Shown one piece after another: positions 1,066-36,924 of a stretch of DNA of 59,856 nucleotides (position 1 is the stretch's first letter; every line of letters starts with the position of its first letter). Under the pieces are notes generated by a model. That model did not search any database, was not told the DNA's origin, and saw nothing but the letters and a program-made list of their open reading frames with translations. Made by a program: the position numbers and the translations under genes. The stretch lies in assembly GCA_028702435.1 (NCBI GenBank), contig JAQVOX010000001.1, positions 1 through 59,856 of the forward strand, read 5' to 3'. This stretch comes from Desulfotomaculaceae bacterium (lineage in GTDB: Bacteria > Bacillota > Desulfotomaculia > Desulfotomaculales > Pelotomaculaceae).

Positions 1066-3705
1066 ATGACTGGTCATGAGATTAGAGAGATTTTCTTAAA
1101 ATTTTTTGAAAATAAAGGGCATACGATCTTACCCAGCGCCTCTCTCATACCTCTAAATGATCCGAGCATCCTTTGGACGGCTGCTGGAATGGTGCCTTTT
1201 AAGCCGTATTTTACCGGATCTTCCAAACCGGAGTTTTCCAGAGTGACAACCTGCCAGAAATGTATTCGCACTCCGGATATTGAATCAGTAGGTCGGACTG
1301 CTCGTCATCATACATTTTTTGAAATGTTGGGCAACTTTTCTTTTGGGGACTATTTTAAAGAGAGCGCTATACCTTGGGCTTGGGAATTTGTGACTGAACA
1401 ATTGCGCTTGCCGCCCGAACGGCTATGGATCACCGTTTATCAGGATGACGATGAAGCATTTGATATCTGGCACCGGGTAGTTGGTGTGCCGGCCGACCGT
1501 ATTGTGAGAATGGGTAAAGACACTAACTTTTGGGAAATTGGCGTTGGACCCTGCGGTCCATGTTCGGAGATCCATGTTGATCTTGGCGCTGAGCGTGGTT
1601 GCGGTGTACCGGGTTGTGCCGTAGGCTGCGAGTGCGACCGGTACTTGGAAATTTGGAATTTGGTTTTTATCCAGTACTTTAGAGATGAGGAAGGTAATTA
1701 TTCACCTCTGGCTAATAAGGGTATTGATACCGGGATGGGCCTGGAACGAGTAGCCTCGGTGCTCCAGAATGTACCGACGAATTTCGAAACCGATTTGCTC
1801 CGTGAAATCGTGGATTTCACCGCTGAGCTAATTGGTCTAAAATATGGTATTGAGAGCAAGGTTGATCTGGCTCTGAAGGTAATTGCGGACCATTGCCGGG
1901 CGATAACTTTTGCTGTTACCGACGGCGCCCTACCTTCAAATGAAGGTAGGGGATATGTAATCCGGCGCCTTCTGCGGCGGGCTGTCCGTTTAGGTAGGCT
2001 AATGGGAATGCAGGGACTTTTTATGAGTCAGGTGGCAGGCACTGTCATTAGCCAAATGGGCAAGGCTTACCCGGAGTTGGTGGAGCGGCAAGATCACGTT
2101 TTAAAGGTTATTCTGGCTGAGGAAGAGCGTTTCGGAGAAACCCTGGCCCAGGGTACGGAAATGTTAAACCAGATTATCGCCGGTCTAAAAGCGTCAGGTG
2201 GTTCAGTTATTCCGGGAGTAAGTGCATTTAAGCTTTACGATACCTACGGCTTCCCCTTGGAATTGACCCGGGAAATAGCTGCCGAGCAGGGACTAACGGT
2301 GGACTCGGAGGGATTTGGGGATGCTATGGAAGGCCAGCGGCAACTGGCCAGGAGCGCCAGGCGGGAGACTGAATATATCTCCGAGCGGGACGCTTTCTTT
2401 AAGGACTTGCGTGAGCGGGTTGGTTCCACCACTTTTGTAGGATATAATTCATTAGAGGCTGAGTCCAGCGTCCTGGGCATATTAAAAGGTGGGGAAAGAG
2501 TAAAGTCGGCGTCAGCCGGGCAGGAGATCGAATTTGTCCTTGATGTTACTCCCTGTTATGCAGAATCCGGCGGGCAGGTTGGCGATTTTGCCCGGGTTAC
2601 TGCCCCTGAACTGGATGTGGAAGTTTTTGAAGTGAGTAAACCGGTAGAAAATCTTTTTATCCACCGTGGTAAAGTAATCAATGGGGTGATCAAAGAACAG
2701 GACCTAATTCAGGTACAGGTGGATTCTGCCAGGCGTGCCGCTATTTGCCGCAACCATTCTACCACCCACCTGATACACAAGGCTTTAAGGGAAGTGCTGG
2801 GTGGGCACGTCAATCAGGCAGGTTCACTGGTAGAGCCGGAAAGACTACGCTTTGACTTTACTCATTATGGTGCTATGTCCCAGGATGAATTAAAGCGCGT
2901 AGAAAGTATTGTCAACCGTGCGGTGCTGGCTAACCTGCCTGTGGAGGTCTTTGAGACTTCGGTTGCAGAAGCGCGCGCGCTTGGAGCGGCCGCTCTTTTT
3001 GGTGAAAAATACGGGGAACGGGTCAGGGTGGTTAAAATGGGTGACTTTAGCTTAGAGCTGTGCGGTGGTACCCATCTTCGCTCTACCGCTGAGGCGGGTT
3101 TGTTTAAGATAGTAGGAGAAAGCAGTGTTGGGGCTGGGCTGCGCCGGATCGAAGCGGTAACCGGGGAAGGAGCTTTAACCTACATCGAGGAGCGGGAGAA
3201 ACAATTTGCTGAGATTGCCCGACTGCTCAAGGCGCCGCCGCATAAGACAGCGCACCGGGTGGAGGGATTGCTTCAAAATATTAAAGATCTTGAGGCCGAG
3301 AGCGAGATGCTCCAGGCCAGGCTGGCCAGATATCAGATGCAGGAATTGCTGGACCGGGTGCAAGAGATAAAAGGGGTAAAAGTGTTGGCCGGGCAGGTTG
3401 CTACCCCGGACATGGACAGCCTGCGCGGCATGGTTGACCTTTTGAGAGATAAAATTGGCACCGGTGTAATTGTATTAGGCAGCGAGTCCAATGGTAAGGT
3501 AAACTTGGTTGCTGCGGTTACCAAGAATTTGTTGGACAGAGGCCTGCACGCCGGTAAATTGATCAAGGAAGTGGCTGCCCTGGTTGGCGGTGGCGGTGGC
3601 GGCCGGCCCGAGCTAGCCCAGGCCGGCGGCAAGGATCCGTCCCGCTTGAATGAAGCATTAGGGACAGCCTATCAGGAGGCGGGAAGGCAAATTAAGGATT
3701 CATAA
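1066..3705 (+). CDS. alaS: alanine--tRNA ligase
   Basis: N-terminus MTGHEIREIFLKFFENKGH, editing-domain motifs HSTTHLIH and CGGTH, C-terminal DHHA1 tail GGGGGRPELAQAGG. I moved the start from 1012 to the ATG at 1066; TTG 1063 is also possible. Confidence 0.97.
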   Translation: MTGHEIREIFLKFFENKGHTILPSASLIPLNDPSILWTAAGMVPFKPYFTGSSKPEFSRVTTCQKCIRTPDIESVGRTARHHTFFEMLGNFSFGDYFKESAIPWAWEFVTEQLRLPPERLWITVYQDDDEAFDIWHRVVGVPADRIVRMGKDTNFWEIGVGPCGPCSEIHVDLGAERGCGVPGCAVGCECDRYLEIWNLVFIQYFRDEEGNYSPLANKGIDTGMGLERVASVLQNVPTNFETDLLREIVDFTAELIGLKYGIESKVDLALKVIADHCRAITFAVTDGALPSNEGRGYVIRRLLRRAVRLGRLMGMQGLFMSQVAGTVISQMGKAYPELVERQDHVLKVILAEEERFGETLAQGTEMLNQIIAGLKASGGSVIPGVSAFKLYDTYGFPLELTREIAAEQGLTVDSEGFGDAMEGQRQLARSARRETEYISERDAFFKDLRERVGSTTFVGYNSLEAESSVLGILKGGERVKSASAGQEIEFVLDVTPCYAESGGQVGDFARVTAPELDVEVFEVSKPVENLFIHRGKVINGVIKEQDLIQVQVDSARRAAICRNHSTTHLIHKALREVLGGHVNQAGSLVEPERLRFDFTHYGAMSQDELKRVESIVNRAVLANLPVEVFETSVAEARALGAAALFGEKYGERVRVVKMGDFSLELCGGTHLRSTAEAGLFKIVGESSVGAGLRRIEAVTGEGALTYIEEREKQFAEIARLLKAPPHKTAHRVEGLLQNIKDLEAESEMLQARLARYQMQELLDRVQEIKGVKVLAGQVATPDMDSLRGMVDLLRDKIGTGVIVLGSESNGKVNLVAAVTKNLLDRGLHAGKLIKEVAALVGGGGGGRPELAQAGGKDPSRLNEALGTAYQEAGRQIKDS

Positions 3706-12569: not shown

Positions 12570-12917
12570 ATGCCAGGCTTTAACGGAACCGGACCGGCAG
12601 GTATGGGAACAATGACCGGACGCGGAAGAGGATATTGTATCAGCAATATTATCCCTGGTACCAGGTTTGCAACTGAAACTTGGAGCGGCCGTGGCGCCCG
12701 GCGCGGCTGGGGTTGGCAGCAATCCGACTTTACCACTGGAATGTTAGCTGGACTGGGCTTATACTTGGGCCATTCTTTGTTGAAAAGGCATTTTGCACCT
12801 GCGATAAGCGGGGAAGATGAGCTAAACCTGCTTAAAGAAGAAGTCGGCTATCTGGAAAATGCCCTTGCACAGGCTAAAAACCGCATTGAAGAACTGGAAA
12901 GCGAAGAAAAGAAATAG
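12570..12917 (+). CDS. DUF5320 family protein with C-terminal coiled coil
   Basis: MPGFNGTGPAGMGTMTGRGRGYC N-terminus, a hydrophobic patch, then the heptad-like LNLLKEEVGYLENALAQAKNRIEELESEEKK. Confidence 0.7.
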   Translation: MPGFNGTGPAGMGTMTGRGRGYCISNIIPGTRFATETWSGRGARRGWGWQQSDFTTGMLAGLGLYLGHSLLKRHFAPAISGEDELNLLKEEVGYLENALAQAKNRIEELESEEKK

Positions 12918-12939
12918 CATACCCGGTAGGGAGAATAAA

Positions 12940-13800
12940 ATGACTACAAGATTGACTATTGCCTTGGCGAGCGGCAAGGGAGGAACCGGTAAGACTACTG
13001 TTGCTGTGAATCTAGCTAGCGCTGCCGCCGCCGCAGGATATGAAGTTTGTTATGTGGATTGTGATGTGGAAGAGCCGAATGGGCATCTCTTCTTGAACCC
13101 CCGCATCAGGCGCCGTTACCCGGCCAATGTGCCGGTTCCAGTAGTTGATTCGGAGCGGTGTACCGCCTGCGGCGCCTGCGGGGAAATTTGTCAATACAGT
13201 GCGATCGTATGTATTAATAAAAATGTCCTCACTTTTGAAAAAATGTGTCATGGCTGTGGTGGTTGCCAACTGGTTTGCCCGGTGGCTGCCATTACCGAAA
13301 AGGACCGAGAAACCGGTGTCGTAGAAGAAGGCGAAGCCGGGCAGATAGCTTTTGTTCATGGCAGGCTCAATGTAGGCGAGGCTATGAGCCCGCCGTTAAT
13401 CAGGGCCGTGCGTGCGGCAGGGCAAAATAAGGCCTTAAATATTATTGATGTGCCCCCGGGGACCTCCTGCCCGGTAATTGCAGCCATTAGAGGAGTAGAC
13501 TTAGTTATTTTAGTAACCGAACCGACCCCCTTTGGGCTGAATGACCTGGACCTGGCCTTAGATATGGTTAAAGAGCTAGGGATCCCCCACGCCGTAGTGG
13601 TGAACAGGTCCGAACCGAGTAACAATCTAGCCCGTAATTTCTGCAAGGAAAGGGAAGTCAAATTACTGGCGGAGATTGCGGATGACCGCAGGGTAGCTGA
13701 AGCTTACTCCAGGGGCGAGTTGGCATTTTGGTCTGCCCCGGGTTATCAGGCAGTTTTTGATGACCTCCTGAGCTCTATTGTGAAAGAGGCGAGAAAGTGA
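12940..13800 (+). CDS. MinD/ParA-type P-loop ATPase with inserted 2x[4Fe-4S] ferredoxin domain (COG1149-type)
   Basis: Deviant Walker A ASGKGGTGKTT; CTACGACGEIC and CHGCGGCQLVCP motifs. I moved the start to the ATG at 12940 (RBS GGTAGGGAG). Confidence 0.88.
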   Translation: MTTRLTIALASGKGGTGKTTVAVNLASAAAAAGYEVCYVDCDVEEPNGHLFLNPRIRRRYPANVPVPVVDSERCTACGACGEICQYSAIVCINKNVLTFEKMCHGCGGCQLVCPVAAITEKDRETGVVEEGEAGQIAFVHGRLNVGEAMSPPLIRAVRAAGQNKALNIIDVPPGTSCPVIAAIRGVDLVILVTEPTPFGLNDLDLALDMVKELGIPHAVVVNRSEPSNNLARNFCKEREVKLLAEIADDRRVAEAYSRGELAFWSAPGYQAVFDDLLSSIVKEARK

Positions 13801-14675
13801 AAGAGATAATTGTAATCAGCGGTAAAGGGGGTACCGGTAAGACAAGCGTGGCCGCTTCTTTAGTTGCCCTGGCTAAAAGGTCGGTGGTGGCGGACTGCGA
13901 TGTGGATGCAGCCGACCTGCACTTGGTGCTTGATCCTCAGATTGAAAAAGTTGAGGATTTTTCCGGTGGCAAGGGCGCCACAATTATACCCGACAAGTGC
14001 AGCGATTGTGGAAAGTGTTATGAACTCTGCCGTTTTGAGGCCATAATCAAAGATGATGGTAAGAAGCCGGCTTATGCCATCGACCCTATAGCCTGTGAAG
14101 GGTGTGGAGTCTGCAGCTACTTTTGCCCGGAGAAAGCAATTGCATTCGAGCCTGTTGTTAACGGCCGGTGGTTTATTTCCGCTACCCGCTACGGCCCGAT
14201 GGTCCATGCCAGGCTTGGCATTGCGGCAGAAAATTCCGGCAAGCTGGTTTCCCTGGTACGCAGCCAGGCAAAAGCGCTTGCTGAAAAAGACGATTTGCCT
14301 TTTATTATTGTTGATGGTCCGCCGGGTATTGGTTGTCCGGTTATTGCGTCGATCACCGGCGCCGATGCGGTACTGATTATTACTGAACCCACTGTTTCTG
14401 GTGAACACGACCTGGAGCGGGTGGCTGAGCTGGCCGGACACTTTAAAATACCGACTTTTGTCTGTATCAATAAGTTTGATCTTAACCTGGAAAAAAGTAA
14501 AAATATCGAAGAAAAATCCATGGCCAGCGGTATCACCGTTATTGGTAGGATCCATTATGACCGGGCCGTAACCCAAGCCCAGGTAAAAAAGCTTCCGGTA
14601 GTAGAGTTTACCGGTTCTACTGTGGCAAAAGATATCATAGCTATTTGGGACAACCTCATAAAAGAACTAAACTAA
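13797..14675 (+). CDS. MinD/ParA-type P-loop ATPase with inserted 2x[4Fe-4S] ferredoxin domain (paralog)
   Basis: ISGKGGTGKTS Walker A; CSDCGKCYELC and CEGCGVCSYFCP. 4-nt overlap with the previous gene. Confidence 0.88.
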   Translation: MKEIIVISGKGGTGKTSVAASLVALAKRSVVADCDVDAADLHLVLDPQIEKVEDFSGGKGATIIPDKCSDCGKCYELCRFEAIIKDDGKKPAYAIDPIACEGCGVCSYFCPEKAIAFEPVVNGRWFISATRYGPMVHARLGIAAENSGKLVSLVRSQAKALAEKDDLPFIIVDGPPGIGCPVIASITGADAVLIITEPTVSGEHDLERVAELAGHFKIPTFVCINKFDLNLEKSKNIEEKSMASGITVIGRIHYDRAVTQAQVKKLPVVEFTGSTVAKDIIAIWDNLIKELN

Positions 14676-14693
14676 ATTAAAAAGGAGATTACT

Positions 14694-15038
14694 ATGAAAA
14701 TCGTTTTACCTATAGCAGGGAACCAATTATGTATGCATTTTGGCCATTGTGAAATGTTTCAAATTTTTAATGTCGATCCGGTAACTAAAGAAATTACTAG
14801 CACGGAAACATTTACTCCCCCGCCGCATGAGCCTGGCCTGTATCCCAGACTGCTGGGCGAAAAGGGGGCAAACATCATCATCGCCGGTGGTATGGGCCCG
14901 CGGGCGCAGGAATTGTTCAACCGTAATAATATAGAAGTCGTAGTTGGCGCTAGTTCTGCTACCGGTAGCCCTGAAGATGTAGTCAGGGAGTATTTAGAAG
15001 GCTCTTTGCAAACCGGCGACAATGCCTGCAGCCACTAA
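14694..15038 (+). CDS. NifB/NifX family cluster-binding domain protein (second copy)
   Basis: MKIVLPIAG...HFGHCEMFQIF...GANIIIAGGMGPRA. RBS AAGGAG. Confidence 0.85.
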   Translation: MKIVLPIAGNQLCMHFGHCEMFQIFNVDPVTKEITSTETFTPPPHEPGLYPRLLGEKGANIIIAGGMGPRAQELFNRNNIEVVVGASSATGSPEDVVREYLEGSLQTGDNACSH

Positions 15039-15577
15039 TGATCTAGGTTGAAGTTAAGGAGCATGACAGTACTTTTTTATTAAATTCCATACCGGAAAGG
15101 TCGGTTCAATAAAATATTGTTTTAATATGTGTATTGGCTAAAGTAAGGGCTAGGTTGGCATAGTTATAAGTAATCGCCGGCAAACATCCTGGCAAAATAT
15201 TTTAGCCAAATTTTTTTGAGGGGCGCCGGTTGGGTGTCGGGTGCATTTAGGGAGGTATTTTTAGAATGAGAAAGGTTTGTTTTGATCATAGTGCTATGCT
15301 ACTATACCTGTACCCCCCTGTGGCCATTTCTGTATAAGTAACTTATAAATAAATATTTAAGATGTTTAGATATTATTGTTGATTATTTATGCAGATGGGA
15401 ATTATAATATTTATGAGCAATGACCGCAATCTAGTGGTGTTTAAGCTATATTCTACCCGAATGCGTGCTTTAGGAGTAAATGAAAAGTATGTACTGAAAG
15501 ATTTATTGTTGTTAGTATACGACCAGATAGGTGATATTTATGGTTTTCATAATAATAGCTAACAGGAGATAAATTTA

Positions 15578-16006
15578 ATGCAAATCTACGATAATGAAAA
15601 ACTTATAGAGCATTTTATGAATCCATGTAATGTGGGGAGAATTGACAATGCTGATGGAATTGGAATGGCAGGCGATCCTTCCTGCAGCGACTACGTAAAG
15701 ATATACATAAAAGTCGGTGATGGTCAATTAATGGATATAAAATATGAAGTACATGGTTGCCCGGCAGCTATTGCTACTTCCAGCGTTTTTAGCGAACTGG
15801 TTAAAGGAAAGGCAATATACGATGCCCTGGAAATAAATGACCAGGATGTTGTTGAAGCTTTGAACGGTTTACCGGAGCAAAAATTACATTGTTCTTGTAT
15901 GGCCGTGGAAGCTTTCGATAAAGCTATTATCGACTGGGTCATACGGACCCTGCCGGAATATAAGGAAGAGATCGAGTCTATGATGGAGCATCTATCCCAA
16001 AAATAG
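15578..16006 (+). CDS. NifU N-terminal/IscU-like Fe-S cluster scaffold protein
   Basis: NPCNVGRI, DPSCSD, HGCPAAIATSS and LHCSCMAVEA give the three scaffold Cys. Confidence 0.85.
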   Translation: MQIYDNEKLIEHFMNPCNVGRIDNADGIGMAGDPSCSDYVKIYIKVGDGQLMDIKYEVHGCPAAIATSSVFSELVKGKAIYDALEINDQDVVEALNGLPEQKLHCSCMAVEAFDKAIIDWVIRTLPEYKEEIESMMEHLSQK

Positions 16007-16087
16007 ATTGGGTTTTTAAAATCATATATTTTTCTAATGAAAGCATGACAGATTTTAAATAATAACATACAGGAGGATATCTAATTT

Positions 16088-16909
16088 ATGTCAGATTGTG
16101 CTTATGAAAACGAAAGTAATAATGGACAAGCTAATGAAACGAAAACGGGCATTGAAAAATTAGCCCAAAATAATTTTAGCAGTATTAAAAATGTAATAGC
16201 TGTAGCTAGTGGTAAAGGTGGTGTAGGGAAATCTTCAGTGACATCACTTCTTGCCTGTGAATTTAAGAGGAAAGGCCAAATTGTCGGCGTGCTGGACGCA
16301 GACATTACCGGTCCCAGCCTGCCCAAAATGTTTGGCCTTAAGAGTGGGGTAAGAAGCAATGGCTCTGCGTTATTCCCTTCAATCAGCGATAATGGGATCA
16401 GAGTTATGTCACTAAACTTATTGACAGGCAAAGAAGATGACCCGGTTATCTGGCGTGGGCCGATAATCGCCGGTACCGTTAAACAGTTTTGGACTGATGT
16501 CGCCTGGGGGGACCTTGATTACCTTTTTGTAGATTTACCCCCAGGAACTGGTGACGTGCCTTTAACTGTAATGCAGTCCCTGCCTCTTAACGGGCTGGTA
16601 GTTGTATCATCACCGCAAGATCTGGCCGTGATGATTGTAAGTAAGGCCATCAAAATGGCCCAAATGATGAATATTCCTATACTTGGACTGGTTGAAAATA
16701 TGAGTAGTTTTATTTGCCCCCATTGCGGAGAAGAATTTTCGTTGTTTGGCCATGCCCAGGGCAAAGAAATAGCTGAGAAATTCCAAATTCCGTTTATCGG
16801 TAGTTTACCAATTGACCCTCACCTTTCAGAACTCTGTGACCAGGGTAAGATTGAGGAGTATCAAAGTAATCTTTTCCATGATTTTATACCTGAAAAGTCA
16901 ATTCAATAG
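16088..16909 (+). CDS. Mrp/NBP35 (ApbC) family Fe-S cluster carrier ATPase
   Basis: VASGKGGVGKSS Walker A, DLPPGTGD, CPHCGEEF (CxxC) motif. Confidence 0.92.
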   Translation: MSDCAYENESNNGQANETKTGIEKLAQNNFSSIKNVIAVASGKGGVGKSSVTSLLACEFKRKGQIVGVLDADITGPSLPKMFGLKSGVRSNGSALFPSISDNGIRVMSLNLLTGKEDDPVIWRGPIIAGTVKQFWTDVAWGDLDYLFVDLPPGTGDVPLTVMQSLPLNGLVVVSSPQDLAVMIVSKAIKMAQMMNIPILGLVENMSSFICPHCGEEFSLFGHAQGKEIAEKFQIPFIGSLPIDPHLSELCDQGKIEEYQSNLFHDFIPEKSIQ

Positions 16910-17684: not shown

Positions 17685-19379
17685 GTGGATATAAAGAGGC
17701 AAAAAAGGCTGATTACAGCTTTTTATTTTTTTGTGTTAGTGCTGGGACTTCTTGCTGTTAGACTCTGGGTAATTCAGGTTAGGGACGGGGACAATTACGC
17801 TATTATGGCTCTGGAACAGGGAAGTAGCTCGGTGGTTTTAGAAGATGTATGCAGGGGGAGAATCCTGGACAGAAACCTGATGCCTTTAACTGGTGCAAGA
17901 GTTGGTGATCGGGTAGTTTTCTTTCCTGCATTAATAGAAGATAAGGACTTAGTACTGCAGGTCCTCTCAGAAACACTTAATACTCCACAACAGGAGTTAG
18001 CTGGTTTTCTGTACGATCCCAGCTATTTGCCGTTAACGCTGTTGCCGGAGCAATCCAAGGCTGTTAAAGAATATGACTGGAAAGGAGTGACAGTATTACC
18101 TGTAAGCTTTAGGTATGGGGACCGGCCGCTGGCAGCGCAAGTAGTGGGACACCTGGGTCGAATTTCCTCGAAAGAGGAATTATCTTTATTAAGCGAGAGG
18201 AGTAACAAGCTCTACCGGTTTAGCGATTTAGTCGGCAAATCAGGTCTTGAATTTTTTTATGAGACGGAACTCAAAGGGGGAAGACCGGAACGAGCAGTGA
18301 GGATTTTTTACGACGCGGAGGGAAATCTTTTAAAGGGTTCCGTCTTTCAAGTAGAGGATGATGTCAGGGACAAAACCAGAAGGGATTTGGTGCTCACTAT
18401 TGACGCCCGGATTCAGAGTATTGTTGAAGAGGTGATGGACCAAAGAGTAGCAAAGGGCGCGGTAGTAGTGATGGAGGCCGGTACGGGAGACCTTCTCGCT
18501 ATGGCTGGACGTCCATCCTATCATCCCGCACAGGTGGAAGTATATTTGCAAAATGGCGGGGAGGAACGTTTTTTTGACCATTGTACCGCACTATACCCGC
18601 CTGGCTCTATTTTTAAAATAGTAGTGGCTGCGGCCGCTCTTGAGGAAGGTATAGCTAGGCTAAATAGCCGGTTCACCTGTCATGGGGAAAATGAGCAATT
18701 AATCCATTGCTGGAAGGACGCCGGGCACGGCAGTATTACTTTTGCACAAGCATTTGCCGCATCCTGCAACCCTGTTTTTGCGCGATTGGGCTTAAGCTTG
18801 GGAGACTCAAAAATAATAGAATATGCCCAAAGGTTAGGTCTTGACAACCAGGTTGTTACCGGTTACCCGGTACCGCCCGACCACCGCCAGGACCTGAATC
18901 TGATTAACGCTCCTAATAGTCTGGTAAACAGCAGCGTCGGCCAGGGACCTGTTCTAGCTACTCCGGTGCAGGTGACTGCTATGTTAAATGCGGTTGTTTC
19001 TGATGGTATCTACCGGTTACCACGCCTGGTCAAAGAGTTACGTGAAAGCAACGGGAAAGTAGCCCGGGAGTTTACTGCGGACCCCGGCCGAAAAGCAATC
19101 CAGCCTGATACCGCTAGTGAGCTGCGCCGGTTATTAGAACTGGTAATTGATGAGGGCGCCGGAAGTGAGGCCATGGCGCCACTTTTCGGTAGCGCCGGTA
19201 AAACCGGATCAGCCCAGGTGGGCGATAGTGGACAGGTAAACGCTTGGTTTACCGGCTACGCCCCCCGGGCAAATCCATGCTATATTGTGACGGTGCTGGT
19301 AGAAGGCGGGGCCAGCGGCGCCGAGTCGGCAGCCCCTGTTTTCCGAGAAATTATGGAGCAAATCTTGAGTTTAGACTAG
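17685..19379 (+). CDS. class B penicillin-binding protein (FtsI/SpoVD-type transpeptidase)
   Basis: N-terminal TM segment, PBP dimerisation domain, SIFK (SxxK), SCN (SxN) and KTGSA (KTG) motifs. Confidence 0.9.
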   Translation: MDIKRQKRLITAFYFFVLVLGLLAVRLWVIQVRDGDNYAIMALEQGSSSVVLEDVCRGRILDRNLMPLTGARVGDRVVFFPALIEDKDLVLQVLSETLNTPQQELAGFLYDPSYLPLTLLPEQSKAVKEYDWKGVTVLPVSFRYGDRPLAAQVVGHLGRISSKEELSLLSERSNKLYRFSDLVGKSGLEFFYETELKGGRPERAVRIFYDAEGNLLKGSVFQVEDDVRDKTRRDLVLTIDARIQSIVEEVMDQRVAKGAVVVMEAGTGDLLAMAGRPSYHPAQVEVYLQNGGEERFFDHCTALYPPGSIFKIVVAAAALEEGIARLNSRFTCHGENEQLIHCWKDAGHGSITFAQAFAASCNPVFARLGLSLGDSKIIEYAQRLGLDNQVVTGYPVPPDHRQDLNLINAPNSLVNSSVGQGPVLATPVQVTAMLNAVVSDGIYRLPRLVKELRESNGKVAREFTADPGRKAIQPDTASELRRLLELVIDEGAGSEAMAPLFGSAGKTGSAQVGDSGQVNAWFTGYAPRANPCYIVTVLVEGGASGAESAAPVFREIMEQILSLD

Positions 19380-19609
19380 GAGAGCAGCTTTTCCAGCTCA
19401 CTCCGGTTAAAACCTATAACTACCTGATCGCCGGAAGTAATTGTTGGGACAGCCAAACGACCGGTTTTCTTAACCATGTCATCCCTAGCGCGCGCGTCAT
19501 CGGCCACATTAACTTCCTTGTATAGAACACCCTTTTGTGAAAGATACTCCTTCACGTGGTTGCAATGAGGTCAAGTGGGTGTTGTATAAACAGTTACTTC
19601 ATGTATCAT
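19376..19609 (-). CDS. glutaredoxin/NrdH-like redoxin with in-frame TGA at the first CxxC position (candidate selenoprotein, U-P-H-C); alternatively a pseudogene
   Basis: My own translation is MIHEVTVYTTPT[TGA]PHCNHVKEYLSQKGVLYKEVNVADDARARDDMVKKTGRLAVPTITSGDQVVIGFNRSELEKLLS. RBS GGGGGA. The TGA is at 19571-19573. Confidence 0.6.
19537..19555 (-). promoter_or_regulatory. candidate bacterial SECIS hairpin
   Basis: GUGAAGG-AGUAU-CUUUCAC starts 15 nt after the UGA. An outer helix AACACCC/GGGUGUU (19577-19583 / 19526-19532) encloses it. Confidence 0.4.
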
Positions 19610-19653
19610 ATATTATTCCCCCTGAGAAACCCCGCCGCATTGCTGCGGGACTC

Positions 19654-19869
19654 TTAAAATGTTGGTAAACTATCCAAATTATTATTTTCAGAGTCATCAG
19701 GATTGCTTCTAAGATATTCTTTTCCTGTTCTTGATTTCGCTACATTTACCCCTTCTATTTTTCCTTCCTTCGCCATCATGATGGCCTCATCAATACTGTA
19801 GATATTATTGTTGAACATGACGTCGGTGATATCGCCTTCCGAGTTTCTCTTTACTCTTTCAATGTTCAA
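19654..19869 (-). CDS. DUF3892 domain small protein
   Basis: GDITDVMFNNNIYSIDEAIMMAKEGKIEGVNVAKSRTGKEYLRSNPDDSENNNLDSLP. I shortened it to TTG 19869, preceded by GAGGGGG. The longer 119-aa form has an implausible N-terminus. Confidence 0.65.
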   Translation of the reverse strand: MNIERVKRNSEGDITDVMFNNNIYSIDEAIMMAKEGKIEGVNVAKSRTGKEYLRSNPDDSENNNLDSLPTF

Positions 19870-20072
19870 TTTCTTAACCCCCTCACGTAATAGTATTACC
19901 GTAAAAAGCAATATTATCAGTTTGTTTATCAGAAATTTGCAGTGGCTATTGCTAGTATATCCGCCTGTCATAGGGATTGACGCTGGATATGTTTTGCATA
20001 TACAATTATACAATTATAGATAAAGGAAAAAGCAAGCATGTAAAATATGTAAAGTAAACATACTAGTATAAT

Positions 20073-30179: not shown

Positions 30180-31733
30180 TTAGCCGAGGATTGCCTGTAA
30201 GTCCGCTTCCGGGGTGCTAATGGGCTTGATATTGAATTTATCCACCAAAATGTTCAGCACATTTGGAGAAATAAACGCCGGTAGGGTGGGACCGAGATAG
30301 ATGTCCTTGATCTCTAACGACAACAGCGTCAGTAAGACGCAAACGGCTTTCTGTTCGAACCACGATAGAACAATCGACAGGGGGAGTTCGTTGACCCCGC
30401 AGTTAAACGCGCCGGCTAGCGCCACCGCTACTTGAATGGCGGAATAAGCGTCATTGCACTGGCCCATGTCCATTATCCGTGGCAAACCGCCAATTTCACC
30501 GATGTTGAGGTCATTAAAGCGGTATTTACCGCAGCCAAGGGTGAGCACGACCGTGTCCGGAGGCGTCTTTTTCACAAAATCAGTGTAGTAACTTCTGCTT
30601 GTCCTGGCGCCGTCGCAACCGCCCACCAGGAAGAAATGCTTGATCGCGCCGGCCTTGACGGCGTCAATCACCTTGTCGGCCACGCCCAGCACGGTGTTGT
30701 GGGCAAACCCGGTCATTAGCTCGGAGCCACCGTTGATCCCGGTTAGGTTTTGGTCTTCAGCCCACCCGCCCAGTTCCAGCGCCTTATTGATTACCGGGGT
30801 GAAATCCTTGACCCCGTTTTCCCCTTTAATGTGAGTGACACCCGGATAGCCGACCGCGTCGGTGGTAAAGATCCGGTCTGAGTAAGACGGCCGGGGCGGC
30901 ATCAGGCAGTTAGTGGTATAGAGCACCGCACCGGGTATATTGTCAAATTCTTGGCGCTGGTTCTGCCAGGCCGTACCGAAATTGCCTTTCAGGTGGGCAT
31001 ATTGCTTTAGCTCCGGGTAGCCGTGGGCCGGAAGCATTTCCCCGTGGGTGTAAATGTTAATGCCCTTACCCTCAGTCTGCGCCAGGAGCTGTTTTAAGTC
31101 ATGCAGGTCGTGGCCGGTGACTACAATGAACGGTCCCTTGTTAATCGTTGTCGGGACTTTAACCGGAACAGGATGCCCGTAAGTCGAGGTGTTGGCCTGG
31201 TCGAGCAGGGCCATGCATTTGAGGTTAACCTGTCCAAACTCCATGAGAAGGTCCAGCCACTCTGCGGGCGTATGCTCTTCACCGATGGCGCGCATGCCTT
31301 GGTAAAACCAGGCGGTCACCTCGTCATCTGTAAAGCCCAGGACGTGGGCGTGCCAGGCGTAAGCAGCCATGCCGCGGAGCCCGAAAAGAAGGGTGGAGCG
31401 AAGCGATACCACGTCAGGGTCACCCTGCCAAAGGTCATTGACGTCTGGGTCCGCTGCACCACCTAATGCTTCTTTTTTAGTCTGAGCAAGGTCCTTGAGC
31501 TCGTCAATACGGCTTCCATCGAAGTTGACGTTAGTGATTGCAGCAAAAAGACCCTGCATCATCAGTTTGTCTGTGTCCTGATCCGGGTTTTGGCCCAGTG
31601 CGGCACGGGCCAGACCGACCAGCGCGCAGGTCAACTCGTCTAACTTTGCGGCGATATCCGGCTGTTTGCCGCATACGCCTACTTTGGTGCATCCTTTGCC
31701 CCCGACGGTTTGCTCACATTGAAAACAAAACAT
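30180..31733 (-). CDS. hcp: hybrid cluster protein (hydroxylamine reductase)
   Basis: MFCFQCEQTVGGKGCTKVGVCGK N-terminal cluster motif; the rest is Hcp-like throughout (GHDL, GGCDG, MGQCNDA). Confidence 0.95.
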   Translation of the reverse strand: MFCFQCEQTVGGKGCTKVGVCGKQPDIAAKLDELTCALVGLARAALGQNPDQDTDKLMMQGLFAAITNVNFDGSRIDELKDLAQTKKEALGGAADPDVNDLWQGDPDVVSLRSTLLFGLRGMAAYAWHAHVLGFTDDEVTAWFYQGMRAIGEEHTPAEWLDLLMEFGQVNLKCMALLDQANTSTYGHPVPVKVPTTINKGPFIVVTGHDLHDLKQLLAQTEGKGINIYTHGEMLPAHGYPELKQYAHLKGNFGTAWQNQRQEFDNIPGAVLYTTNCLMPPRPSYSDRIFTTDAVGYPGVTHIKGENGVKDFTPVINKALELGGWAEDQNLTGINGGSELMTGFAHNTVLGVADKVIDAVKAGAIKHFFLVGGCDGARTSRSYYTDFVKKTPPDTVVLTLGCGKYRFNDLNIGEIGGLPRIMDMGQCNDAYSAIQVAVALAGAFNCGVNELPLSIVLSWFEQKAVCVLLTLLSLEIKDIYLGPTLPAFISPNVLNILVDKFNIKPISTPEADLQAILG

Positions 31734-31854
31734 AGTGTGTACCTCCTTAAAATTTTTTTGTACTGTTCATAATTTTTAAACTAATTTTTTCCGCTGTCAT
31801 CTTAGAAAGCTTTTCACCGTTAAGGCTTACTTACCAGCGTCATTTTGTAAAGTT

Positions 31855-31860
31855 ATTATA
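31855..31860 (-). promoter_or_regulatory. predicted -10 box of the hcp promoter
   Basis: TATAAT on the minus strand. It overlaps a plus-strand TATAAT (31857-31862) within ATTATAAT. Confidence 0.4.
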
Positions 31861-31882
31861 ATCTATTAAAAATATAAATACG

Positions 31883-31896
31883 GTAACTGTAGTTAC
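31883..31896. promoter_or_regulatory. perfect palindrome GTAAC-TGTA-GTTAC, candidate Crp/Fnr (HcpR-type) operator
   Basis: 5-4-5 Fnr-like architecture. Its centre lies 41.5 nt upstream of the TSS implied by the minus-strand -10 box, and it ends 22 nt before the regulator ATG. Confidence 0.5.
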
Positions 31897-31918
31897 TAAA
31901 AAGCAAAGGTGGGTGAAA

Positions 31919-32680
31919 ATGATTAACAAGTGGGTGAAAGTTTTTCCCCAGTGCGCATTATTTAAGGACATCAGCCCGGAAGATTTGAGCCTTGTGTTTG
32001 GATGCCTGCAGCCTAAGATACAAAGTTATGAAAAGAATGAATACGTAACCATTGCCGGCGACGATTTCACCGGTGTCGGGATAGTGCTGGCCGGTGAGGT
32101 GGTAGTGTCCAAAGAAAATACAGCCGGAAACCGGATTATTATGGCGGTAAATAGCCCAGGCGAGTTATTTGGTGAGATAGCGGCGTTTTCAGGGGAAGGA
32201 GTATGGCTGGTCACAGTAGAGGCCCGGGAAGCATGCACGGTTATGTTCTTGCCGGCGGGGAAGATCGTCAGCAGTTGTGAAAGATCATGTGCGAGCCACC
32301 AGCAGTTAATTGTGAACATGCTCCATATCTTTTCGGATAAAGCCCGCGTGCTGCACCGGAAGGTAGAATACCTGGCGATTAAGAGCTTGCGTGGAAAAAT
32401 TAGCGCTTTTCTTTTAGAACATTATCAAAAGACCGGTAACGACATTTTGGTAATGCCTCTGAAACGGAATGAGCTGGCGGATTTCTTGAACGTTACCCGC
32501 CCGGCTCTTTCACGCGAGATGAGCAGGTTGAGGGATGAGGGAGTTATAGATTTTCAAAGGGATGCGATAAAAATTAAGTCGGTAGACACCTTAAAAAGTA
32601 TCGCTGGTCTGGGGGATTATTCCGTCACCAAAAAAAAGGAAACGACCCCCCGTGGATTAATGTTGTCAAGTAGGTTCTAG
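31919..32680 (+). CDS. Crp/Fnr family transcriptional regulator (HcpR-like by divergent position to hcp)
   Basis: cNMP-binding-like beta-roll (GELFGEIA) and C-terminal HTH (ELADFLNVTRPALSREMSRLRDEGVI). I moved the start to ATG 31919 (RBS AAGGTGG). Confidence 0.8.
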   Translation: MINKWVKVFPQCALFKDISPEDLSLVFGCLQPKIQSYEKNEYVTIAGDDFTGVGIVLAGEVVVSKENTAGNRIIMAVNSPGELFGEIAAFSGEGVWLVTVEAREACTVMFLPAGKIVSSCERSCASHQQLIVNMLHIFSDKARVLHRKVEYLAIKSLRGKISAFLLEHYQKTGNDILVMPLKRNELADFLNVTRPALSREMSRLRDEGVIDFQRDAIKIKSVDTLKSIAGLGDYSVTKKKETTPRGLMLSSRF

Positions 32681-35197: not shown

Positions 35198-35335
35198 ATG
35201 AAAAAAACAATCTTTAGGCTTTTTCTATTAGGAACCTCTCTGCTATCAGTTGCTTTTGGAGTTAGGCGCGGTGAGGTGGAGGAAGTCATGCAAAAAGCGA
35301 TTAATCTTTGCCTGGAGTGCATTGGCATTGGCTGA
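35198..35335 (+). CDS. 45-aa membrane micro-protein with C-terminal CLECIGIG (CD1871A-like CXXC family, from memory)
   Basis: MKKTIFRLFLLGTSLLSVAFGVRRGEVEEVMQKAINLCLECIGIG. The ATG is 1 nt after the upstream stop. It falls below the ORF-track size once trimmed to this start. Confidence 0.65.
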   Translation: MKKTIFRLFLLGTSLLSVAFGVRRGEVEEVMQKAINLCLECIGIG

Positions 35336-36182
35336 TTTAAAGCGGAAAGCAGTCCAGTTTACCTCTGCCATATTGTTCAATAGCCATGCGGAGGGCTTTG
35401 CCAGGGGTACTATTTACCGTGGAAATATGAAACAATTCTGCCTGCCGGTGCTAAACTGCTATTCCTGCCCGGGCGCCATCGGTTCCTGCCCGATCGGGTC
35501 GCTGCAGGCCGTGGCTGCCGGGATCACCTACCAGTTTTCTTTCTACGTGGCCGGCTTTCTGGCCCTGGTGGGGCTGGTTGTCGGTAAAATGGCCTGTGGC
35601 TGGCTATGCCCCTTCGGCTTGCTGCAAGACCTGCTCTACCGTATCCCGTCTTTCAAAGGGGTACTGCCGCTGTGGACCCGCTACTTTAAGTATGCCGTGA
35701 TGGTTTTCTTGATTCTGCTGCTGCCGGCGCTAGCCGTCGATCAGTTCGGCCTTGGCGCCCCATTATTTTGCAAGTGGCTTTGCCCGGCAGGCACACTGGA
35801 GGCTGCCCTGCCTCTTGCTATAGCCAGCGAAGGGATTAGGAATGCGTTAGGTGCACTCTTTTATTGGCGCCTGGCGTGGCTATTGCTAATCATTTTTTTG
35901 TGTGTGATATTTCAAAGAGCATTTTGTCTTACGCTCTGCCCTCTTGGGGCTATCTATTCCGTATTTAACCGGATCAGTATCTTCAGCATACGCCTTGATG
36001 AAAAACTGTGCACAAAGTGCGGCCGCTGCGCAGAGGTATGTCACCTTAGACTTCCGGAGATTGCCGGACCCAATCACCCGGAATGCATCCGCTGTCTGAA
36101 ATGCGTAAAAAGTTGCCCTACGGGAGCAATGGACTGGCACATAGACGTTTTAGGTAAAAAGGAGGAGCAAAAATGTGTTTAA
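35328..36182 (+). CDS. NapH/MauN-like integral-membrane polyferredoxin (4Fe-4S binding protein)
   Basis: NCYSCPGAIGSCPIGSLQ; three CxxxCP(F/A/L)G motifs (CGWLCPFG, CKWLCPAG, CLTLCPLG); C-terminal CTKCGRCAEVC and CIRCLKCVKSCP. The start is uncertain; TTG 35328 overlaps the micro-protein stop. Confidence 0.85.
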   Translation: MADLKRKAVQFTSAILFNSHAEGFARGTIYRGNMKQFCLPVLNCYSCPGAIGSCPIGSLQAVAAGITYQFSFYVAGFLALVGLVVGKMACGWLCPFGLLQDLLYRIPSFKGVLPLWTRYFKYAVMVFLILLLPALAVDQFGLGAPLFCKWLCPAGTLEAALPLAIASEGIRNALGALFYWRLAWLLLIIFLCVIFQRAFCLTLCPLGAIYSVFNRISIFSIRLDEKLCTKCGRCAEVCHLRLPEIAGPNHPECIRCLKCVKSCPTGAMDWHIDVLGKKEEQKCV

Positions 36183-36924
36183 GCTGATTGCCAGGGTGCT
36201 TGTCCTTCTTGTGTTTTTATTTGTCTTGGGAGGCTGCTCCGGCAGCAGGGACGAAGAGGCAGGTATAAATTTTGTAGAAACTGGCACTGCAGATCAGGTT
36301 CCGGTAGAGCAGCCGGTGCAGCAGCAATCTCTAGCGTCTGAAGAAAACGGGCAGACGGCAAAACAGCAGAATATGACATCAAGCCCATCTAATGATTTGC
36401 AAACTTCTGAACCAGAGCAGTTGCAAGACAGTTCCAAAGCAGCAGAAAGCGAAGCTAAGACGGAACCTTTTGCCGGCCCGGCTGTGGTAAAGGACTATTC
36501 CCTCAGCGTGGGCGGGTACTTTCCGCCTTTTAATCTAGCCGGCTTGGACGGGAAGCAATATCAATCGGTTAATGTATTCAGCGCCAATCAAGTGACCCTA
36601 GTTAATTTCTGGGCAACTTTTTGCGGGCCATGTATCCGGGAAATGCCCGCTTTGGAGCAGCTCAGGCAGAACTATCAGGGTCGTAGTCTGGGTCTGATTG
36701 GGATTGTGCTGGATTCCAAAAAGGCGGATACAGCAAGATCAATGGTTACCAGACTAGGCACAGGTTATCCTCATCTACTTGATGATGGCTGGTTCGGACC
36801 ATATATTTATGCGGTGCCACAAACATTCCTGGTCGACAATGAAGGGAAAATCTTGCAGGCTATGACCGGTGCAAAATCATTGCAACAATTCAGCGACACG
36901 GTTGACCCTTACCTCAGGCATTAA
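36175..36924 (+). CDS. TlpA/ResA-like thiol-disulfide oxidoreductase lipoprotein
   Basis: Lipobox LGGC, a long Q/S/E-rich linker, thioredoxin fold with WATFCGPC. GTG 36175 follows AAAGGAGGAG and overlaps the upstream stop by 8 nt. Confidence 0.88.
   Translation: MFKLIARVLVLLVFLFVLGGCSGSRDEEAGINFVETGTADQVPVEQPVQQQSLASEENGQTAKQQNMTSSPSNDLQTSEPEQLQDSSKAAESEAKTEPFAGPAVVKDYSLSVGGYFPPFNLAGLDGKQYQSVNVFSANQVTLVNFWATFCGPCIREMPALEQLRQNYQGRSLGLIGIVLDSKKADTARSMVTRLGTGYPHLLDDGWFGPYIYAVPQTFLVDNEGKILQAMTGAKSLQQFSDTVDPYLRH

Follow-up and report, generated by a model that had tools for sequence, protein, structure and literature searches.

A predicted glutaredoxin-like UxxC selenoprotein gene, with a conserved hairpin behind its TGA codon, in a Desulfotomaculaceae contig

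We analysed the first 59,856 nucleotides of contig JAQVOX010000001.1 from a Desulfotomaculaceae bacterium (the window) and followed up one minus-strand frame, 19376-19609, in which an in-frame TGA takes the place of the first cysteine of a glutaredoxin (Grx)-type CxxC motif. This frame very probably encodes a 77-residue YruB/glutaredoxin-like oxidoreductase of the thioredoxin fold that uses selenocysteine (Sec, U) as its attacking active-site residue. The locus is a previously unannotated member of an established and experimentally validated family, the Grx UxxC selenoproteins. The assignment is carried by the recurrence of the TGA among orthologues, by selection on the peptide on both sides of it, by membership in the Grx-like fold family and by a hairpin, constrained at the RNA level, that has the published properties of a bacterial selenocysteine insertion sequence (bSECIS). 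The features of the locus are listed below; column numbers refer to A2, a gapless 90-column alignment in which the hairpin stem occupies columns 43-50, paired with 54-61.

19376..19609, minus strand: predicted coding sequence of the Grx-like selenoprotein, 77 codons (M1 to S77) plus TAG
19617..19622, minus strand: Shine-Dalgarno-like GGGGGA, 7 nt 5' of the ATG at 19609
19609-19607, minus strand: start codon ATG, first codon of the Grx frame
19571..19573, minus strand: in-frame TGA, codon 13, predicted Sec, replacing the first cysteine of CxxC (TPT-U-PHC)
19562..19564, minus strand: TGC, Cys16, predicted resolving cysteine of the UxxC motif; its TG (columns 34-35) is invariant in A2
19537..19555, minus strand: bacterial SECIS hairpin, codons V19-Q25, beginning 15 nt after the UGA
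19445..19447, minus strand: CCA, Pro55 of the AVPT loop, at the cis-proline position of thioredoxin-fold proteins
19378-19376, minus strand: TAG stop of the Grx gene
19377..19379, plus strand: TAG stop of the convergent penicillin-binding-protein (PBP) gene (17685-19379)
19376..19555, minus strand: GTG-initiated 59-aa fragment, reported by open reading frame (ORF) finders and gene callers instead of the full gene

A conserved TGA in a predicted glutaredoxin coding frame

The first-pass annotation of this DNA had described a minus-strand Grx frame from 19609 to 19376 with TGA at the first CxxC cysteine, and both its coordinates and the translation it quoted were exact. When the window copy was translated, the TGA at codon 13 was the sole interruption of the frame. 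The proposed ribosome-binding site GGGGGA upstream of the ATG was present, at 19622-19617, with a spacing of 7 nt in place of the roughly 9 nt given. The Grx stop had also been said to overlap that of the convergent PBP gene, and the plus strand does read CTAG at 19376-19379, the two stops sharing two bases.

The homologous codon was located in 80 loci from a scan of one genome per GTDB species, plus the window. Of the 82 orthologous gene copies, window counted, 78 had TGA at the aligned position; the others carried TGT (Cys; L004), TGC (Cys; L075), TCA (Ser; L063) and TGC (L083, from a separate look-up). The first-pass annotation had asked whether orthologues carry TGA or TGC at this codon with a conserved hairpin, and the answer was a large majority of TGA, few Cys (TGT/TGC) forms and a conserved hairpin. 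Copies came from Pelotomaculum, Desulfofundulus, Desulfocucumis and other Desulfotomaculia, from Thermincola, Ammonifex and Natronincola, from many metagenome-assembled genomes (MAGs) of Dehalococcoidia/Chloroflexota and from one delta-proteobacterial MAG, with Clostridia among the groups represented. An orthologue with the same TGA and hairpin was present in the finished genome of Pelotomaculum thermopropionicum SI (AP009389.1). Cys occupied the TGA column in L004, L075, L083, L086-L092 and the solved glutaredoxins, giving the position a Sec/Cys pair, and the database protein P0002 is a genuine TGC form. TGA served as the ordinary terminator of 5 of the 38 family-confirmed window genes, so this codon has not been reassigned genome-wide. 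The window was also scanned for further redox genes broken by a TGA, and no second candidate emerged.

Two of the orthologous loci deserve separate mention. The TCA at L063:1619-1621, in a Chloroflexota MAG, lies one base away from TGA and is followed by an intact hairpin; it may be an assembly error or an SxxC variant. The delta-proteobacterial MAG (L071) carried tandem Grx copies at 2413-2650 and 2991-3260, both with TGA at the UxxC motif, and one of them had a second in-frame TGA (SGR-TGA-QVPV) where its paralogue has Arg. The copy with two TGA codons could be a pseudogene; alternatively, the extra TGA could stem from a long-read error or itself be recoded.

The sequence 5' of the TGA behaved as coding sequence. 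Across the eight codons preceding it, the mean column entropy was 0.46 bits at first, 0.34 bits at second and 1.64 bits at third codon positions, a pattern indicating purifying selection on a translated peptide that is in frame with the downstream part. A start codon (ATG, GTG or TTG) was found 10-16 codons before the TGA in 81 of the 81 copies examined, and in nearly all of these a GGAGG-type Shine-Dalgarno sequence preceded the start within 20 nt. The resulting peptide, VTVYTTPT-x-PHC, was conserved at the protein level and aligned to solved glutaredoxins.

For profile searches of the protein, U was read as C. Pfam Glutaredoxin (PF00462) matched with 66.3 bits against a threshold of 22.9, residues 5-64 covering profile positions 1-60 of 60, and the NCBIfam model of the YruB family (TIGR02196) with 92.9 bits against a curated cutoff of 88.55, over profile positions 2-73 of 74; the latter model describes CxxC proteins, whereas the window protein would have Sec at the first Cys. 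The best match among solved structures was PDB 7c10 ('Glutaredoxin'; TCPHC, VKEFLS), at full length with E = 1.5e-18 and 51% identity over 73 residues, and in this alignment U13-P-H-C16 and A53-V54-P55-T56 fell on its TCPHC and AVP motifs. The protein thus has both hallmarks of a thioredoxin-fold dithiol oxidoreductase: strand 1 is followed by a C/UxxC motif, and strand 3 is preceded by a conserved proline loop. A53, V54, P55 and T56 were invariant across the eight proteins of alignment A1, the VP pair occurred in 82 of 82 translated copies, and Pro55 would, by analogy with the fold family, adopt the cis conformation.

Scores below cutoff were obtained for three neighbouring families: NrdH-redoxin (TIGR02194; 51.8 bits vs 85.75), glutaredoxin 3, the classical glutathione-dependent Grx (TIGR02181; 57.9 bits vs 90), and the UXX-star glutaredoxin-like selenoproteins (NF041212; 64.9 bits vs 66). 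Since the protein scored below the glutaredoxin 3 cutoff, dependence on glutathione should not be assumed. It resembles NrdH-redoxins in size and fold and in a GF(N/R)xxE-type motif after strand 4, although it stayed below their cutoff. Proteins of the NrdH type receive electrons from thioredoxin reductase, which would be a plausible reductant for Bacillota that are poor in glutathione. The UXX-star proteins (NF041212 and its subfamilies) share a distantly related Grx-like fold that uses Sec; their Sec lies three residues from the C-terminus, whereas that of the window protein would lie in the N-terminal UxxC motif, and the window protein's C-terminus (...EKLLS-TAG), unlike theirs, carries no UGA.

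The closest experimentally studied system is Grx1 of Clostridium sp. OhILAs (Clostridium/Alkaliphilus oremlandii; Kim et al. 2011), of which the U13C/C16S mutant was used in PMC4479559. It is a thioredoxin-fold protein of about 80 aa with Sec13 and Cys16 in a UxxC motif, the same residues as in the window protein. Its partner is a selenoprotein MsrA, which it reduces, and it works with glutathione, whereas no msrA gene was adjacent to the window Grx gene; the window protein also belongs to a Desulfotomaculia clade with a longer KTGRLAVPT loop, unlike Clostridium Grx1. Grx UxxC (PF00462) is listed among the experimentally validated prokaryotic selenoprotein families, and selenium in the polypeptide is described as demonstrated for the Clostridium Grx1 relative. 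Grx selenoproteins had already been catalogued in 2006 in Geobacter sulfurreducens, Moorella thermoacetica and Alkaliphilus metalliredigenes (Zhang et al., PMC1794560). The likeness to these is one of class, namely Sec in place of the redox Cys in anaerobes rich in selenoproteins; to the three organisms known then, the window locus adds Pelotomaculum-like Desulfotomaculia, and the related loci add many Dehalococcoidia MAGs.

The hairpin downstream of the TGA

The first-pass annotation had drawn a 7-bp hairpin 15 nt after the UGA, with arms GUGAAGG (19555-19549) and CUUUCAC (19543-19537) around the loop AGUAU (19548-19544). It is present as drawn, and RNAfold closed one further A-U pair, giving an 8-bp stem (19555-19548 with 19544-19537, one pair being G-U) and the loop GUA (19547-19545). 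Across orthologues the consensus was GUGAARGA-GUW-UCUUUCNC, and the 19-nt element GUGAARGAGUWUCUUUCNC was kept nearly letter for letter across Bacillota, Chloroflexota and the delta-proteobacterial MAG. In A2 (80 distinct sequences) the stem was paired in 94.4% of cells, while in the apical loop the G was nearly invariant and the U invariant.

A published set of bSECIS constraints (the bSECISearch model, summarised in PMC13188914) was compared with the element, with values for the 7-bp form in parentheses:

Apical loop: published 3-9 nt; here 3 (or 5) nt, GUA (or A-GUA-U)
Upper stem: published 4-16 bp; here 8 (or 7) bp
G within the first two loop positions: here G then U at the loop start
Distance from UGA to loop: published 16-37 nt; here 23 (22) nt
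Minimum free energy: published <= -7.5 kcal/mol; here -10.3 kcal/mol

The hairpin thus lies within the published limits throughout. Like elements of the bSECIS consensus and Escherichia coli fdhF type, it follows directly on the UGA, lies inside the coding region and presents G then U at a small loop. In contrast to the E. coli elements, its sequence is unrelated to theirs, is unusually invariant over 19 nt and is not maintained by covariation.

The decisive evidence came from synonymous sites, where the codons of the hairpin were compared with those that encode identical residues in the remainder of these genes:

Hairpin Val: GTG in 80/80; background 35%
Hairpin Glu: GAG in 79/79; background 37%
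Hairpin Leu: CTT in 77/81; background 14%
Hairpin Ser: TCN in 81/81; background 57%
Hairpin Phe/Tyr: T-ending in 74/81; background about 47%

The hairpin Lys, for which either AAA or AAG can pair with U, was at background proportions. This freezing of synonymous sites indicates an RNA-level constraint in addition to that on the protein. Taken with the Sec/Cys pair, the coding sequence and starts upstream of the TGA, the agreement with the bSECIS model and the P. thermopropionicum orthologue, it bears out the first-pass proposal of a UxxC selenoprotein of Grx/NrdH type with a SECIS.

An outer 7-bp helix, AACACCC (19583-19577) with GGGUGUU (19532-19526), had also been proposed to bracket the UGA and the hairpin. 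The two segments are complementary in the window, but the helix was not used in the minimum-free-energy fold and was not conserved. Only 67% of cells paired, three pairs at wobble positions were unpaired in 45-60 of the 80 sequences, and the apparent pairing derived from the fixed first and second positions of Pro and Gly codons. With both helices scored together, covariation measures were no better than those of shuffles. We therefore rejected 19577-19583/19526-19532 as part of the element.

How the gene would be decoded and the protein would act can be outlined from the established bacterial Sec pathway and from the fold family. Translation would start at ATG 19609. With the UGA (19573-19571) in the A site, the mRNA hairpin downstream would recruit SelB with GTP and Sec-tRNASec, the complex binding the hairpin loop; Sec13 would be inserted in place of termination, and translation would run on to the TAG at 19378-19376. 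Judged from the sequence, it would be Sec and no other residue that is placed at codon 13. In the mature protein, Sec13-Pro-His-Cys16 would lie at the start of helix 1. By analogy with other proteins of the fold and with residues 13 and 16 of Clostridium Grx1, Sec13 would attack a partner in its oxidised state, either a disulfide or an intermediate of sulfenic or selenenic type, Cys16 would resolve the mixed bond to leave an internal selenenylsulfide, and an upstream external reductant would then reduce this bond and recycle the protein.

Weighing the alternatives to selenocysteine

Several observations weigh against Sec decoding through this hairpin. No selA, selB, selD or tRNA-Sec gene was found within the 60-kb window. 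The hairpin showed no two-sided compensatory covariation in the A2 pair counts and was conserved as sequence, RNAalifold returned no consensus structure for the 81-sequence alignment (named structures were scored by pair counts after this empty result), and no Rfam family matched in the window at gathering thresholds. The single-sequence fold of the 48-nt segment, whose energy of -10.3 kcal/mol is given above, had z = -0.77, with 48 of 200 shuffles at least as stable. Finally, the Cys forms L089-L092, from metagenomes, kept the stem-forming codons, two of them with a full 8-bp stem, which means that the hairpin is not strictly tied to the TGA. Because the folding energy was not beyond chance, the reality of the hairpin rests on its conservation. 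A permissive Rfam search of 19300-19700 gave only a chance-level hit to PYLIS_3 (E = 3.3) on the opposite strand.

Regarding the machinery, none of the 38 annotated window genes was a sel gene, and the single tRNA in the window was tRNA-Pro. tRNA-Sec was found neither in the window nor in the 60 related loci, a result that is uninformative given how little of each genome these sequences cover. P. thermopropionicum SI, as a carrier of the orthologue, serves as the best proxy; it is listed as having the Sec and selenouridine traits and a SelD that contains Sec (PMC2432076, Table S1).

The Cys forms offered a natural control, as they were expected to lose the hairpin, and the result was only partly informative. 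In the Cys lineage L075/L086/L087 the same peptide, VKEFLSQKG, was encoded with Leu-Ser as CTC AGC and the hairpin was abolished (-0.8 kcal/mol), whereas L079, the nearest Sec-form relative of this lineage, retained CTT TCC. The Cys form L088 used CTA for Leu and had a weakened hairpin; neither AGY nor CTA was used by any TGA form. Stem-forming codons were also kept in the Cys forms L004 and L083, and L090 and L091 (Ser TCC) had a shorter, 6-bp stem. The simplest explanation for the hairpin-bearing Cys forms is recent replacement of Sec by Cys, and the mixture of retention and loss suggests repeated, recent switches in this direction.

The retained hairpins also speak for a reading in which the UGA is decoded as Cys, or as a mixture of Sec and Cys, by a tRNASec-like tRNA(ReC) together with the SECIS hairpin and a SelB-type factor, making the product either an ordinary CxxC glutaredoxin or one that switches with selenium supply. 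tRNA(ReC) has been reported to decode UGA as Cys with a SECIS downstream, in a paper that itself flags the limit this places on bioinformatic selenoprotein calls, and L004, L083 and L089-L092 are Cys forms that keep the hairpin. A tRNA of this type was, however, not found in the window or in the 60 related loci (a small part of each genome), and the Sec trait of P. thermopropionicum together with the validated Sec-containing Grx1 of Clostridium makes Sec the default. We regard decoding by tRNA(ReC) as improbable; this caveat, together with the Sec machinery of this particular genome, accounts for the residual uncertainty about Sec decoding. A broader conjecture, unlikely in our judgement but somewhat less so, is that the 19-nt SECIS does more than recruit SelB, either permitting the codon to be read facultatively as Sec or Cys by way of a tRNA(ReC)-type system or travelling with the gene as a horizontally transferred Sec cassette, because the element is near-identical across phyla and persists in several Cys-form genes. 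If facultative decoding were true, the choice made by the tRNA(ReC)-type system would depend on selenium supply, and nature would offer, in this clade, a switch between selenium and sulfur chemistry at a single codon.

The remaining explanations deny that the TGA is recoded at all. A single stop in an otherwise intact frame is what a glutaredoxin recently inactivated by a TGC or TGT to TGA nonsense mutation would look like, and annotations of relatives do treat the gene as a fragment; but a pseudogene would not show the same TGA in 78 of 82 copies from several phyla, purifying selection on both flanks, conserved upstream starts with Shine-Dalgarno sequences and, in the window copy, no other disruption of the frame. 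This explanation is effectively refuted, and the preference of the first-pass annotation for recoding over decay was well founded. It is highly implausible, too, that a true TGC or TGT was misread or misassembled as TGA in the window. One base separates these codons, and the clade does include Cys variants (L004, L083), but TGA is the majority state in independent assemblies, the finished genome AP009389.1 included. Gene callers, for their part, choose starts that give products of 59 or 43 aa, so that the real product might be the 59-aa fragment from GTG 19555, or the 43-aa one, with the upstream 12 codons forming a leader ORF that ends at the TGA. Such a 59-aa product would lack strand 1 and the whole redox motif, its GTG sits within the conserved hairpin with no Shine-Dalgarno sequence before it, and the upstream VTVYTTPT-x-PHC shows conservation at the protein level and can be aligned with solved glutaredoxins; we hold a fragment to be as implausible as an error. 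Incorporation of Sec at codon 13 thus remained the reading we favour.

Public annotation of the clade and genes around the locus

The consequence of this reading is chiefly a correction of annotation, since a whole clade of genes is truncated in public records. As the first-pass annotation had said, the gene is invisible in a mechanical ORF list, which at the Grx locus contained only the 59-aa GTG ORF 19376-19555. Its expectation that standard callers would drop the gene or flag it as a pseudogene needed amending, as they instead call fragments of 59 or 43 aa or read the TGA as Trp. Of the relatives retrieved by a protein search, three were full-length and seven were truncated (43-59 aa), the latter beginning just after the TGA position; one of the seven, P0008, is the window's own 43-aa database call, and another is PTH_1073 of P. 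thermopropionicum SI. The record of PTH_1073 gives a hypothetical protein of 59 aa, whereas the true ORF (L084:2946-3180 in AP009389.1), which reads MERNITVYTTPT-TGA-PHCSHVKEFLSQKG... and is preceded by AAGGAG, starts 18 codons earlier and includes the TGA. The ENA protein P0003 shows W at the Sec site; its DNA has TGA, translated with a table in which TGA encodes Trp. Because the records give a 59- or 43-aa fragment or Trp at the Sec site, the proteomes of Pelotomaculum, other Desulfotomaculia and many Dehalococcoidia MAGs lack the redox-active protein. The uniform hairpin provides a simple signature for recovering the whole clade. With the gene restored, these syntrophic anaerobes would be marked as using selenium in thiol-redox maintenance besides formate dehydrogenases; no new mechanism is revealed, and the understanding of recoding itself is unchanged.

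Clustering of neighbour genes across loci identified no conserved operon partner. The convergent neighbours 3' of the Grx gene were variable: 33 loci had a PBP gene there, 25 had a triple-HTH (XRE-type) regulator and 21 had a thioredoxin. An example of the convergent thioredoxin lies at L032:3317-3925 (minus strand), directly 3' of the Grx selenoprotein gene; both the thioredoxin and the triple-HTH regulator are absent from that position in the window. No ribonucleotide reductase (nrd) genes were found near the window Grx gene. On its 5' side and the same strand it adjoins a DUF3892 gene (19654-20013, minus strand), and between the two, after the DUF3892 gene and 8 nt before the Grx Shine-Dalgarno sequence, lies a GC-rich inverted repeat, CCCGCAGCAATGCGGCGGG (19630-19651), which a consensus terminator scan did not flag.

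The wider window holds housekeeping and sporulation genes of a Bacillota genome, including alaS, mltG, spoIIP, Fe-S carrier genes, the PBP and a sigma factor, together with aro genes, topA, xerC, hslUV and codY. The Fe-S carrier/assembly-type cluster, at 12859-16909 (plus strand), contains two CbiA/ParA ATPases with 4Fe-4S ferredoxin inserts, a Nitro_FeMo-Co (NifX/NifB-like) protein, a NifU N-terminal-domain protein and an Mrp/NUBPL-type ParA. Other redox-stress genes of the neighbourhood form two groups, one at 30180-32680, where a hybrid-cluster protein (Prismane) is divergent from a Crp/Fnr-type regulator, and one at 35250-36924, with a NapH-like ferredoxin protein and, after it, a ResA/TlpA-like thiol:disulfide oxidoreductase.

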